In this document: piece by piece, positions 59,220 to 64,000 of the stretch
Layout: the number at the start of each line of letters is the position of its first letter
How positions within the stretch are numbered: position 1 is the first letter of the stretch
Assembly (NCBI RefSeq): GCF_013122565.1
Contig: NZ_CP053258.1
Direction: 5' to 3' (one strand)
Origin: Escherichia coli
GTDB lineage: Bacteria; Pseudomonadota; Gammaproteobacteria; Enterobacterales; Enterobacteriaceae
Length of the DNA stretch: 64,000 nucleotides
The notes under the pieces: generated by a model
Database searches by the model: none
What the model was told of the DNA's origin: nothing
Seen by the model: the letters and a program-made list of their open reading frames with translations, nothing else
Made by a program: the position numbers and the translations under genes

Positions 59220-59543
59220 ATGTCGATTACACTTAGCGACAGTGCAGCAGCGCGAGTAAATACCTTTCTGGCTAACCGTGGCAAAGGGTTTGGCCTGCGT
59301 CTGGGCGTGAGAACCTCCGGATGTTCAGGTATGGCTTATGTACTGGAATTTGTTGACGAACCGACGCCGGAAGACATCGTGTTTGAAGACAAAGGCGTGA
59401 AAGTCGTGGTCGATGGCAAAAGCCTGCAATTTCTGGACGGTACGCAGCTGGACTTCGTAAAAGAAGGCCTGAACGAAGGGTTTAAATTCACCAACCCGAA
59501 CGTTAAAGATGAGTGTGGTTGCGGCGAAAGCTTCCACGTTTGA
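59220..59543 (+). CDS. iscA: Fe-S cluster assembly A-type carrier IscA
   Basis: ORF track 59214..59543 (TTG); ATG at 59220 ([17 protein letters not shown]...) gives 107 aa; C-terminal CGCGESF motif. Confidence 0.96.
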
Positions 59544-60170: not shown

Positions 60171-62021
60171 ATGGCCTTATTACAAATTAGTGAACCTGGT
60201 TTGAGTGCTGCGCCGCATCAGCGTCGTCTGGCGGCCGGTATTGACCTGGGCACAACCAACTCGCTGGTGGCGACAGTGCGCAGCGGTCAGGCCGAAACGT
60301 TAGCCGACCATGAAGGCCGTCACCTGCTGCCATCTGTTGTTCACTATCAACAGCAAGGGCATTCGGTGGGTTATGACGCGCGTACTAATGCAGCGCTCGA
60401 TACCGCCAACACAATTAGTTCTGTTAAACGCCTGATGGGACGCTCACTGGCTGATATCCAGCAACGCTATCCGCATCTGCCTTATCAATTCCAGGCCAGC
60501 GAAAACGGCCTGCCGATGATTGAAACGGCGGCGGGGCTGCTGAACCCGGTGCTCGTTTCTGCGGACATCCTCAAAGCACTGGCGGCGCGGGCAACTGAAG
60601 CCCTGGCAGGCGAGCTGGATGGTGTAGTTATCACCGTTCCGGCGTACTTTGACGATGCCCAGCGTCAGGGCACCAAAGACGCGGCGCGTCTGGCGGGCCT
60701 TCACGTCCTGCGCTTACTTAACGAACCGACCGCTGCGGCTATCGCCTACGGGCTGGATTCCGGTCAGGAAGGCGTGATCGCCGTTTATGACCTCGGTGGC
60801 GGGACGTTTGATATTTCCATTCTGCGCTTAAGTCGCGGCGTGTTTGAAGTGCTGGCAACCGGCGGTGATTCCGCGCTCGGCGGCGATGATTTCGACCATC
60901 TGCTGGCGGATTACATTCGTGAGCAGGCGGGCATTCCTGATCGTAGCGATAACCGCGTTCAGCGTGAACTGCTGGATGCCGCCATTGCAGCCAAAATCGC
61001 GCTGAGCGATGCGGACTCCGTGACCGTTAACGTTGCGGGCTGGCAGGGCGAAATCAGCCGTGAACAATTCAATGAACTGATCGCGCCACTGGTAAAACGA
61101 ACCTTACTGGCCTGTCGTCGCGCGCTGAAAGACGCGGGTGTAGAAGCTGATGAAGTGCTGGAAGTGGTGATGGTGGGCGGTTCTACTCGCGTGCCGCTAG
61201 TGCGTGAACGGGTAGGCGAATTTTTCGGTCGTCCACCGCTGACTTCCATCGACCCGGATAAAGTCGTCGCTATTGGCGCGGCGATTCAGGCGGATATTCT
61301 GGTGGGTAACAAGCCAGACAGCGAAATGCTGCTGCTTGATGTGATCCCACTGTCGCTGGGCCTCGAAACGATGGGCGGCCTGGTGGAGAAAGTGATTCCG
61401 CGTAATACCACTATTCCGGTGGCCCGCGCTCAGGATTTCACCACCTTTAAAGATGGTCAGACGGCGATGTCTATCCATGTAATGCAGGGTGAGCGTGAAC
61501 TGGTACAGGACTGCCGCTCGCTGGCGCGTTTTGCGCTGCGTGGTATCCCGGCGTTACCGGCTGGCGGAGCGCATATTCGCGTAACGTTCCAGGTTGATGC
61601 CGACGGTCTTTTGAGCGTGACGGCGATGGAGAAATCCACCGGCGTTGAGGCGTCTATTCAGGTCAAACCGTCTTACGGTCTGACCGATAGAGAAATCGCT
61701 TCGATGATCAAAGACTCAATGAGCTATGCCGAGCAGGACGTAAAAGCCCGAATGCTGGCAGAACAAAAAGTAGAAGCGGCGCGTGTGCTGGAAAGTCTGT
61801 ACGGCGCGCTGGCTGCTGATGCCGCGCTGTTAAGCGCCGCAGAACGTCAGGTCATTGACGATGCTGCCGCTCACCTGAGTGAAGTGGCGCAGGGCGATGA
61901 TGTTGACGCCATCGAACAAGCGATTAAAAACGTAGACAAACAAACCCAGGATTTCGCCGCTCGCCGCATGGACCAGTCGGTTCGTCGTGCGCTGAAAGGC
62001 CATTCCGTGGACGAGGTTTAA
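60171..62021 (+). CDS. hscA: Hsp70-type chaperone HscA
   Basis: ORF track 60117..62021; ATG at 60171 ([31 protein letters not shown]...) gives 616 aa. Confidence 0.97.
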
Positions 62022-62022
62022 T

Positions 62023-62358
62023 ATGCCAAAGATTGTTATTTTGCCTCATCAGGATCTCTGCCCTGATGGCGCTGTTCTGGAAGCTAATAGCGGTGAAACC
62101 ATTCTCGACGCAGCTCTGCGTAACGGTATCGAGATTGAACACGCCTGTGAAAAATCCTGTGCTTGCACCACCTGCCACTGCATCGTTCGTGAAGGTTTTG
62201 ACTCGCTGCCGGAAAGCTCAGAGCAGGAAGACGACATGCTGGACAAAGCCTGGGGACTGGAGCCGGAAAGCCGTTTAAGCTGCCAGGCGCGCGTCACCGA
62301 CGAAGATTTAGTGGTCGAAATCCCGCGTTACACTATCAACCATGCGCGTGAGCATTAA
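62023..62358 (+). CDS. fdx: [2Fe-2S] ferredoxin of the isc operon
   Basis: 111-aa [56 protein letters not shown].... Confidence 0.97.
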
Positions 62359-62369
62359 CAGAGGTTAGT

Positions 62370-62570
62370 ATGGGACTTAAGTGGACCGATAGCCGCGAAA
62401 TTGGCGAAGCACTGTACGATGCGTATCCCGATCTTGATCCGAAAACGGTTCGATTCACCGATATGCATCAGTGGATTTGCGATCTGGAAGATTTCGACGA
62501 CGACCCGCAGGCATCCAACGAGAAAATCCTCGAAGCGATTTTGTTAGTCTGGCTGGACGAAGCCGAGTAA
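62370..62570 (+). CDS. iscX: Fe-S assembly protein IscX
   Basis: 66-aa acidic [50 protein letters not shown].... Confidence 0.95.
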
Positions 62571-62747
62571 TTTCCGCGTCATGCTTCACGCCGCAGATGC
62601 GTTGGCTGCGCTCGTTCACCCCAGTCACATAGTTATCTATGCTCCTGGGGCTTCACTCACTTGCCGCCTTCCTGCAACGCGAATCATTTAGCGGAAAAAT
62701 CCTGGGGCTGCCAACTGGCGGCCCTTTTACAAAGAAGGATAACTAAA

Positions 62748-64000
62748 ATGACAGAAGCGATGAAAATTACCCTCTCTACCCAACCTGCCGACGCGCGCTG
62801 GGGAGAAAAAGCAACTTACAGCATTAATAATGACGGCATTACCCTGCATTTGAACGGGGCAGACGATCTGGGGCTGATCCAGCGTGCGGCGCGCAAAATT
62901 GACGGTCTGGGCATCAAACATGTTCAGCTAAGCGGTGAAGGCTGGGATGTGGATCGCTGCTGGGCATTCTGGCAAGGTTACAAAGCCCCGAAAGGCACGC
63001 GTAAAGTGGAGTGGCCGGATCTGGACGATGCCCAGCGCCAGGAACTGGATAACCGCCTGATGATCATCGACTGGGTGCGTGACACCATCAACGCACCGGC
63101 GGAAGAGCTGGGGCCATCGCAACTGGCACAGCGTGCTGTTGATCTGATCAGCAACGTCGCAGGCGATCGTGTGACTTATCGGATCACCAAAGGTGAAGAT
63201 CTGCGTGATCAAGGTTATATGGGGCTGCACACTGTCGGGCGCGGTTCAGAACGTTCTCCGGTATTGCTGGCGCTGGATTACAACCCAACTGGCGATAAAG
63301 AAGCACCGGTGTACGCGTGCCTGGTTGGTAAAGGCATCACTTTTGATTCCGGCGGCTACAGCATCAAACAGACTGCGTTTATGGACTCGATGAAGTCGGA
63401 CATGGGCGGCGCGGCAACGGTTGCCGGGGCGCTGGCATTTGCCATTACGCGCGGACTGAACAAGCGCGTGAAGCTGTTCCTCTGCTGTGCGGATAACCTG
63501 ATTAGCGGCAATGCGTTCAAGCTGGGCGATATCATCACCTATCGCAACGGTAAAAAAGTTGAAGTGATGAACACTGATGCCGAAGGGCGTCTGGTGCTGG
63601 CCGATGGTCTGATTGATGCCAGTGCGCAGAAACCGGAACTGATCATTGATGCGGCGACCCTCACCGGGGCGGCGAAAACCGCGCTGGGTAATGATTATCA
63701 TGCGCTGTTCAGTTTTGACGATGCGCTGGCCGGTCGCTTGCTGGCGAGTGCCGCGCAGGAGAACGAACCATTCTGGCGTCTGCCGCTGGCGGAATTCCAC
63801 CGCAGCCAGCTGCCGTCTAACTTTGCCGAACTGAACAATACCGGAAGCGCGGCGTACCCGGCAGGCGCGAGCACGGCGGCGGGCTTCCTGTCGCACTTTG
63901 TTGAGAACTATCAGCAAGGCTGGCTGCATATCGACTGCTCGGCGACTTACCGTAAAGCGCCGGTTGAACAGTGGTCTGCGGGTGCTACGGGACTTGGTGT
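62748..64000 (+). CDS. pepB: Peptidase B (M17 leucyl aminopeptidase family); 3' end truncated by window edge
   Basis: ATG at 62748 read directly ([55 protein letters not shown]...); ORF runs open to the end of the window; M17 motif NTDAEGRL visible. Confidence 0.9.

Follow-up and report, generated by a model that had tools for sequence, protein, structure and literature searches.

The spacer between iscX and pepB in Escherichia coli is a copy of the ERIC repeat followed by a conserved terminator-like hairpin and the pepB Shine-Dalgarno sequence

What fills the spacer between iscX and pepB in Escherichia coli, and does anything in it set the isc operon apart from pepB? The window, which is the whole 64,000-nucleotide stretch of E. 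coli DNA analyzed here, has at its 3' end the genes hscA (to 62021), fdx (62023-62358), iscX (62370-62570), and pepB (from 62748). The spacer between the last two spans 62571-62747 (177 bp), bounded by the iscX stop codon at 62568-62570 and the pepB ATG at 62748. It is also 177 bp long in K-12 MG1655 (2656359-2656535, minus strand), whose RefSeq record holds no feature annotation within it, and the pepB start in the window is the same base as the annotated start in K-12 and other records. Recent work on the isc operon writes the operon as ending at iscX and leaves the spacer unmentioned. A sequence-only reading of this DNA had described the spacer as structured, and had proposed that it may contain a pepB promoter or an attenuator.

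The spacer is made up of three parts: an ERIC copy, an old and conserved terminator-like hairpin, and the Shine-Dalgarno sequence and ATG of pepB. These are features of already described kinds, an ERIC repeat and an ordinary conserved hairpin, and none of them is a new regulatory element. Taken whole, the best explanation of the locus is an ancestral hairpin that would serve as a leaky terminator or 3' protector, an old ERIC insertion, and the pepB Shine-Dalgarno sequence; we give this reading a probability of about 0.8. The features, in order along the DNA, are as follows.

62370 to 62570, plus strand: iscX coding sequence, 66 amino acids, from the list of open reading frames; named iscX in K-12 and other E. 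coli records.
62571 to 62697, plus strand: ERIC (IRU, RU-1) repeat, 127 bp, from the match to the published E. coli consensus.
62571 to 62596, plus strand: left terminal inverted repeat of the ERIC copy (inverted repeat I1, 26 nt, 73% complementary).
62619 to 62650, plus strand: central hairpin of the ERIC copy (inverted repeat I2), paired in predicted MFE structures.
62672 to 62697, plus strand: right terminal inverted repeat of the ERIC copy, the partner arm of I1; as RNA it is AU-rich, GAAUCAUUUAGCGGAAA.
62704 to 62725, plus strand: deeply conserved GC-rich hairpin, GGGGCUGCC-AACU-GGCGGCCCU, -17.7 kcal/mol, in 80 of 80 sequences.
62725 to 62728, plus strand: short T-run TTTT after the hairpin, from the sequence.
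62735 to 62750, plus strand: pepB ribosome-binding site AAGGA (62735-62739) and ATG (62748-62750), from the sequence.

We compared the segment 62571-62697 with the 127-nt E. coli ERIC (RU-1) consensus given in Table 1a of Delihas 2007 (PMC2759123). The two matched over their full length, ungapped, at 105 of 127 positions (83%), while shuffles of the segment gave 33 +/- 4.8 matches with a maximum of 51. The match to the Salmonella SeRU-1 sequence was 96/127. The isc-pepB mRNA strand carries the reverse complement of the canonical orientation as it is printed in that table. When the segment was used as a BLAST query, it was found at 59,503 places. Of 5,426 complete E. coli genomes, 5,425 had such places, 2 to 18 in each (median, 13); the consensus as query gave the same median of 13 and a maximum of 22 places per genome. 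The family was reported in 1990-91 and is classed in reviews as a miniature inverted-repeat element. We conclude that the core of the spacer owes its structure to the dispersed ERIC/IRU repeat, of which it is a copy, and is not a locus-specific regulator. Rfam has no ERIC family as such; its family RF02818 (V_AS5) aligns to the minus strand of the segment over model positions 1-129, with 44.9 bits (E = 6e-9) against a gathering score of 96.

The anatomy of the copy is that of a complete element. The terminal inverted repeats have 26-nt arms that are 73% complementary and span exactly 127 bp, and the outermost 7 nt at the 62571 end, TTTCCGC, pair perfectly with GCGGAAA at 62691-62697. Inside them, CCCCAG (62619-62624) pairs with CTGGGG (62645-62650). 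This pattern occurs nowhere else in the window. The element adjoins the iscX TAA (62568-62570) immediately, so that its termini, TT...AA, are flanked by TAA on one side and AATCC on the other, with neither TA at the ends nor a TA target duplication recognizable. Such termini are consistent with an old, diverged insertion. Strain WCHEC020031 carries both the isc copy and a separate copy between psuT and yeiL, and the latter has the canonical TATAC...GTATA termini.

The ERIC copy is present at iscX-pepB in 3289 of 5425 E. coli genomes and missing from about 39%, and in about 2,100 genomes the locus is about 120 bp shorter. An alignment of alleles from K-12, the window, ETEC H10407, an O25:H4 strain, and strain K_EC180 showed three spacers: one of 58 bp without ERIC, one of 177 bp, and one of 244 bp with 69 bp inserted inside the ERIC copy. 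The 58-bp allele amounts roughly to the hairpin, GAACGGGCUGCC-UGGG-GGUAGCCCGUUU (-20.6 kcal/mol), followed by the pepB Shine-Dalgarno sequence. Long and short E. coli alleles are nearly identical in their coding flanks, and their divergence is limited to the DNA from the iscX stop codon to the pepB Shine-Dalgarno sequence. Wilson and Sharp reportedly noted unusually divergent flanks at polymorphic ERIC sites.

To look beyond E. coli, we anchored a survey on the PepB N terminus in species-representative genomes of the Enterobacteriaceae, which gave 80 loci and 79 extracted iscX-pepB spacers. In 17 of the 79 species a full or near-full ERIC was present, each time adjoining the iscX stop codon and pointing the same way. 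These species belong to Escherichia, Salmonella, Citrobacter, Raoultella, Klebsiella (K. indica), Kluyvera, Enterobacter, Leclercia, and Atlantibacter. Internally deleted remnants are left in about 13 species, and about 49 have no trace. The K. pneumoniae remnant consists only of TTTCGCGT...TAAGCGAAAA, and spacers in the K. oxytoca group are 107 bp long. In most other species, as in the 39% of E. coli genomes mentioned above, the spacer is 51 to 71 bp long and contains the hairpin plus the Shine-Dalgarno sequence.

Copies at this locus have characters that are missing from the genome-wide consensus, namely the termini TTTyyGCGTCATG and the central loop CACATAGTTATCTATGC. Every locus copy is nearer to the window copy (72 to 98%) than to the E. 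coli consensus (62 to 81%). This comparison, which covered the locus copies and the E. coli genome-wide consensus, favors one ancient insertion with many losses over recurrent site-specific insertion.

In the ERIC copy, the 69-bp insert takes the place of CT between GCCGC and TCCTG. Of 5,426 E. coli genomes, 437 contain it, each in a single copy, and it sits at iscX-pepB in both insert-bearing loci that we examined (K_EC180 and strain 746). We considered it as a second mobile family and rejected this, as it is single copy in E. coli and located at iscX-pepB. A homologous insert occupies the identical internal ERIC site in E. whittamii and Leclercia; the 70-bp insert of S. arizonae is a different one and lies elsewhere. 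The three states of the locus (ERIC absent, 127 bp, and 127 + 69 bp) recur within E. coli and across genera.

Where the ERIC copy is present, it is mostly well conserved. Locus copies from 13 species in eight other named genera are 72 to 91% identical to the window copy, and 11 of the 13 fall at 82 to 91%; the low exceptions are locus L047 (78%) and the degenerate Raoultella planticola copy, L023 (72%). We set these values against iscX and the first 200 codons of pepB, which between genera are 77 to 81% identical to the window overall and 43 to 53% at fourfold-degenerate sites (the L082 row of the identity table is unreliable, with its coding comparison out of register). Most full-length isc ERICs therefore evolve more slowly than the flanking coding DNA and several times more slowly than synonymous sites. 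RNAalifold predicted 31 pairs from 15 locus copies plus two consensus sequences, and 14 of the 31 had compensatory double changes. Covariation extends to the terminal pairs, which from genus to genus read CCGC/GCGG, TCGC/GCGA, TTGC/GCAA, or CCAC/GTGG.

We considered a peptide as the source of this constraint. Two reading frames are open through the ERIC copy, one of them a 36-codon ORF (62581-62691) whose ATG lies 10 nt past the iscX stop codon. Most full-length orthologs keep this ORF intact; it ends 12 nt before the hairpin, and open frames of this sort are a property of the ERIC family as a whole. The variable sites of the ERIC copy have no three-base periodicity in any frame (P = 0.31 to 0.42), while iscX, as a control, has variable sites distributed 13/8/60 by codon position. 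We rejected a small ORF or leader peptide on these grounds; the lack of codon periodicity places the constraint on nucleic acid structure and sequence instead.

These results bear on the view that the ERIC copy is left over from a selfish element and has no function, and that only the hairpin and the Shine-Dalgarno sequence matter. Identities of 78 to 91% in 12 of 13 full-length copies (L023 looks decayed) sit poorly with that view when fourfold sites have fallen to 43 to 53%, as do the compensatory changes in 14 of 31 pairs. Gene conversion from other ERICs would not rescue it, as conversion would erase the locus-specific characters common to the orthologs. The relic view draws strength from the losses: with about 39% of E. 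coli genomes lacking it, the copy is dispensable, and the species with deleted remnants or no trace outnumber the rest. In addition, we found no experimental function for the isc copy in the literature covered (ERIC reviews and recent isc operon work). We regard a plain relic as unlikely, though it deserves serious weight. A middle position may also apply, in which selection acts only against harmful, half-broken ERICs, while well-folded or cleanly deleted versions are tolerated and bring no net benefit. The conservation of the ERIC copy where it is present could reflect either a real function or such tolerance.

The real conserved feature at the isc-pepB junction is the hairpin. Its arms are GGGGCTGCC (62704-62712) and GGCGGCCCT (62717-62725) around the loop AACT, forming 9 bp at -17.7 kcal/mol, and T62725 possibly also pairs with G62704. 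Folded in context, it has a z score of -3.9. A hairpin is present at this position in all 80 sequences (79 Enterobacteriaceae spacers plus the window), with 28 different loops; folding energies run from -17.7 to -21.6 kcal/mol. Of the 80 hairpins, 78 have GGGCTGCC as the 5' arm; on the 3' side, GGCGGCCC stands in 58, GGTGGCCC in 15, GGTAGCCC in 4, and GGCAGCC[C/T] in 3. Across 37 distinct sequences, 96.2% of cells are standard pairs, compared with 28 to 55% when the partner column is slid. Three pairs have changed on both sides, and 34 of the 37 retain a U.G wobble; the six core pairs are invariant and so provide no covariation evidence. Judged from these alignments, the hairpin is the ancestral and most conserved content of the spacer, present with or without ERIC. 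The sequence-only reading had named poor conservation as the outcome that would count against it, and the 79 spacers gave the opposite, both for the hairpin and for ERIC where present. Its description of the spacer as strongly structured also held, with the ERIC folds and the 9-bp GC hairpin as the structures concerned.

The same reading saw no obvious rho-independent terminator and so overlooked the 9-bp GC-rich hairpin and its TTTT. The omission is understandable, as a consensus terminator scan makes no call here: the rule requires 5 T in 8 bases, and only TTTT is present. The run after the stem is GTTTGC in 38 of the 80 sequences, and the U-run is 3 to 4 residues long in most species. The locus thus has the GC-rich stem-loop of an intrinsic terminator and lacks its U-rich tract. 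From the hairpin to the pepB start is 23 nt, and in every species examined AGGA is positioned 7 to 8 nt ahead of the pepB ATG. We also considered an anti-Shine-Dalgarno pairing, as the Escherichia-specific AUCCU (62699-62703) pairs with pepB AGGAU when folded in a 46-nt context, and rejected it as not robust. With 30 nt of coding sequence added, the pepB Shine-Dalgarno sequence pairs instead with a CU-rich stretch inside pepB, and in silico replacement of AUCCU had no effect on its pairing. Across species, the probability that the Shine-Dalgarno sequence is unpaired ranges from 0.03 to 0.78, unrelated to the presence of ERIC.

Reported expression bears on read-through past the hairpin. In an E. 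coli iscR mutant, yfhJ(iscX)-pepB-sseB were reported to be derepressed along with the isc genes, and in a Yersinia pseudotuberculosis iscR mutant, pepB was up 10.1-fold and iscX 10.8-fold. Derepression of pepB and sseB together with isc points to read-through more than to a separate promoter. The thresholded Term-seq table of Adams et al. 2021 (PMC7815308) lists no 3' ends in K-12 from 2654157 to 2663263, an interval that includes the spacer. Given the weak U-run and the reported coregulation of pepB with isc, the hairpin is probably a leaky terminator. We infer that it acts as a weak, leaky intrinsic terminator, as a stabilizing hairpin, or as both, with substantial read-through into pepB.

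In this mechanism, the hairpin at 62704-62725 and its short U-run would act on the isc transcript through weak intrinsic termination, 3'-end protection, or the two together. Part of the isc transcripts would end after iscX, and the remainder would run on into pepB-sseB. The ERIC copy, probably an old insertion upstream of the hairpin and next to the iscX stop codon, would be cotranscribed and fold as a long imperfect hairpin. For its effect we turn to a model from Yersinia (De Gregorio et al. 2005), as relayed in PMC2229807 and PMC3184786. According to these accounts, cotranscribed ERICs adjacent to a stop codon lower the upstream relative to the downstream transcript in an orientation-dependent manner via RNase E, and the RNase E site lies in the right terminal repeat. 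By analogy, the isc ERIC might influence how the isc mRNA upstream of it is processed, and how stable that mRNA is, in comparison with pepB. Ribosomes terminating at the iscX stop codon could disturb the basal stem, so that an RNase E site within the right terminal repeat becomes accessible. For the isc copy, a role through RNase E or mRNA stability is suggested by analogy only.

A promoter for pepB in the spacer, native or carried by the ERIC copy, would offer a different route to pepB expression, and it had been raised in the sequence-only reading. Some miniature inverted-repeat elements of other bacteria do carry promoters, according to a review. Our search of 62000-63000 on both strands found no sigma-70-like site. 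Short alleles of 51 to 71 bp, taken up by the hairpin and the Shine-Dalgarno sequence, leave no room for a promoter, yet species with such alleles still conserve and express pepB. Together with the IscR regulation that pepB follows alongside the isc genes, this makes a promoter in the spacer very improbable.

Alternatively, it may be the other strand of the ERIC copy that functions, whether through an antisense RNA or by forming a hairpin in single-stranded DNA. In all 15 copies the mRNA strand folds worse than its complement (-42.7 versus -64.8 kcal/mol in the window), so a constraint on RNA structure, if there is one, is not obviously on the mRNA strand. When each copy is aligned to its own reverse complement, wobble-type mismatches favor the minus strand 49:19, although these counts come from related, nonindependent sequences. 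The family consensus already has a like wobble skew of 4:1, and the skew at this locus may thus be inherited. V_AS5, which Rfam types as an antisense RNA, matches on the minus strand. No promoter-like site was found on that strand in 62000-63000. We give action from the opposite strand slightly less credence still than a promoter in the spacer.

The motifs named in the sequence-only reading are explained by these parts of the spacer. The 64-kb window contains just two instances of the motif CCTGGGGCT, at 62644 and 62701, and the full exact repeat is the 10-nt TCCTGGGGCT at 62643 and 62700. The two copies and the bases that follow them, TC and GC, were described correctly, while the distance between them is 57 bp and not about 70 bp. 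A direct repeat of at least 10 nt arose in 0.8% of dinucleotide-preserving shuffles of the spacer and in 31 of 1082 (2.9%) real 177-nt tiles of the window; with about 3% of tiles of this size containing one, such a repeat is unremarkable by itself. The first copy (62643-62652) forms the right-hand side of the central stem of the ERIC copy and pairs with CCCCAG, and the second (62700-62709) is mostly inside the hairpin, as its 5' arm. Other genera have GGGGATT in the ERIC copy and TAACGGGCTGCC ahead of the hairpin, which makes the 10-nt repeat Escherichia specific. In the Escherichia lineage, one side of the ERIC central stem and one arm of the hairpin happen to share TCCTGGGGCT; this is a coincidence and not a repeated functional unit.

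The segments GCCGCC (62663, inside the ERIC copy) and GGCGGC (62717-62722, the 3' arm of the hairpin) are present and complementary, as had been noted, but they are not partners in the predicted folds: their pairing has a probability of 0.0004 and costs +4.7 kcal/mol when forced, and we rejected it as an antiterminator pairing. A regulated attenuator, in which formation of the hairpin would depend on this pairing or on translation of the 36-codon ORF, is the least probable of the alternatives, for beyond the 6-nt complementarity and an ORF that stops shortly before the hairpin in most full-length orthologs, neither periodicity nor folding revealed the leader peptide or alternative-structure logic of a classical attenuator in the spacer, open frames are ERIC-wide, and most species have the hairpin without ERIC. 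Of the suggestion that an element here separates isc from pepB, the part that survives is the terminator-like hairpin at the junction.

For annotation, the iscX-pepB region can be labeled with an ERIC copy and a terminator-like hairpin, and with no new regulator. The operon annotation ends at iscX, yet pepB and sseB are reported to follow IscR, so the leakiness of the hairpin would decide whether pepB-sseB belong to the isc operon. The locus also offers a natural experiment on ERIC function, with three E. coli spacers between near-identical flanks. It is possible, and we propose it tentatively, that the isc ERIC became fixed long ago and is under host constraint as RNA or DNA, with orthologs in the nine named Enterobacteriaceae genera that retain full or near-full copies. 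If this is true, it would imply a role in the ratio of isc to pepB-sseB expression, or a repeated exchange of spacer cassettes between lineages. The apparent purifying selection on the isc ERIC, with no coding signal, bears on whether ERICs do anything.

We compared the spacer with four known systems. V_AS5 (RF02818), from Vibrio, resembles the ERIC copy in its long-hairpin architecture and in aligning over the full model, 1-129 (E = 6e-9). It differs in that its 44.9 bits fall short of the gathering score of 96, the matching strand is antisense to isc-pepB, and the genus is different. The Yersinia ERICs at stop codons are like the isc copy in adjoining a stop codon inside a multigene transcription unit and in having an AU-rich right terminal repeat. 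In the accounts cited above the Yersinia elements, which are classed by orientation as A or B, are described by their effect on transcript levels; the isc copy is described here by its sequence.

Intrinsic terminators and intercistronic hairpins share with the conserved hairpin a GC stem of 9 to 12 bp, a loop of 3 to 6 nt, the Ts that follow, and a location at the end of the annotated isc operon. Unlike a typical intrinsic terminator, the hairpin has a U-run of 3 to 4 residues in most species, and the genes downstream are reported to be coregulated with isc.

The closest relative is the ERIC/IRU/RU-1 family itself (Sharples and Lloyd 1990; Hulton and coworkers 1991; Wilson and Sharp 2006). The isc copy has the length of 127 bp, 83% identity, terminal and central inverted repeats, and intergenic location of that family, which is multicopy and present or absent among strains. 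It departs from the family in its termini, TTTCCGC...GCGGAAA in place of TATACCC...GGGTATA, and in its central loop, CACATAGTTATCTATGC in place of CACTTACTTATGTAAGC. As the deviant termini and loop are common to copies at the same locus in other genera, they are locus-specific characters. Both the ERIC family and the ordinary conserved hairpin are already known, and the spacer holds nothing new in kind; the long forms with inserts of about 70 bp and the internally deleted short forms that characterize the family both occur at iscX-pepB.

The conserved GC-rich hairpin between ERIC and the pepB Shine-Dalgarno sequence holds a U.G wobble within its stem (window positions 62708/62721). Across this pair and the equivalent positions in comparison loci L005-L084, the wobble is retained in 34 of 37 distinct sequences and not resolved to U-A. 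Because the retained U.G would be a C.A mismatch if read on the opposite strand, its persistence, judged from sequence, points to an RNA-level function on the isc-pepB strand.

Throughout the spacer (window 62571-62750), all 59 codons are open in the iscX frame, and the pepB ATG lies in that same frame; therefore, TAA alone divides iscX from pepB. Open frames are already known as a property of the ERIC family. No coding signal was detected.

We compared spacer tails using window positions 62698-62747 against positions 572-629 of locus L001, together with loci L008, L012, and L017. Two tail families recur across genera, CCCGTTTTnCTGT..CGAAnAAGGA versus CCCGTTTGCTAATAAGGA. In E. coli itself, sharp divergence between the long and short spacer alleles is confined to the stretch from the iscX stop codon to the pepB Shine-Dalgarno sequence, with coding flanks that are almost identical. 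This suggests either that a very small cassette has been exchanged or that the polymorphism is old.

In Kluyvera, Citrobacter, and Pseudocitrobacter (L037), spacers without ERIC start with a segment similar to the ERIC center, AGTCACATAGT. This segment may have been left behind by a deletion, or the similarity may be due to chance.
L010, L020, L037, L043, L053, and L056, at the spacer start: GTCACATAAC

In one record titled "Chryseobacterium sp. 18061" (L081), the isc-pepB locus is that of an Enterobacteriaceae genome and differs little from the locus in "Citrobacter sp. 18056" (L083); the assembly is probably contaminated or mislabelled. Delihas 2007 (PMC2759123) described a different repeat, the 103-bp RU-3, located 3' of pepB in E. 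coli O157:H7 EDL933; the corresponding position, downstream of pepB and beyond window position 64000, would fall outside the window.

Two Rfam "sRNA" families also matched this region on the minus strand, and both look as though they were modelled on ERIC-like repeats.
62572-62696, minus strand: RF02818 V_AS5 ("Vibrio RNA AS5"), full-length alignment to ERIC, below threshold
62540-62625, minus strand: RF02798 CssrA (Shigella sRNA), weak, partial match

ERIC itself can be interrupted. A 69-bp insert, single-copy and at a fixed site within ERIC, was found in 437 of 5426 E. coli genomes. Separately, 12 E. coli genomes match part of it (83% identity) at another locus, beside bsmA; this may be a further insert-bearing repeat.
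L002 (E. coli K_EC180) and L086 (E. coli strain 746): 69-bp insert
L087 (E. coli 06-00048): the partially matching sequence beside bsmA

Homologues of the 69-bp insert occupy the same internal ERIC site in E. whittamii (L006) and Leclercia (L048). The 70-bp insert of S. arizonae (L014) is unrelated to it and lies at a different internal ERIC site.
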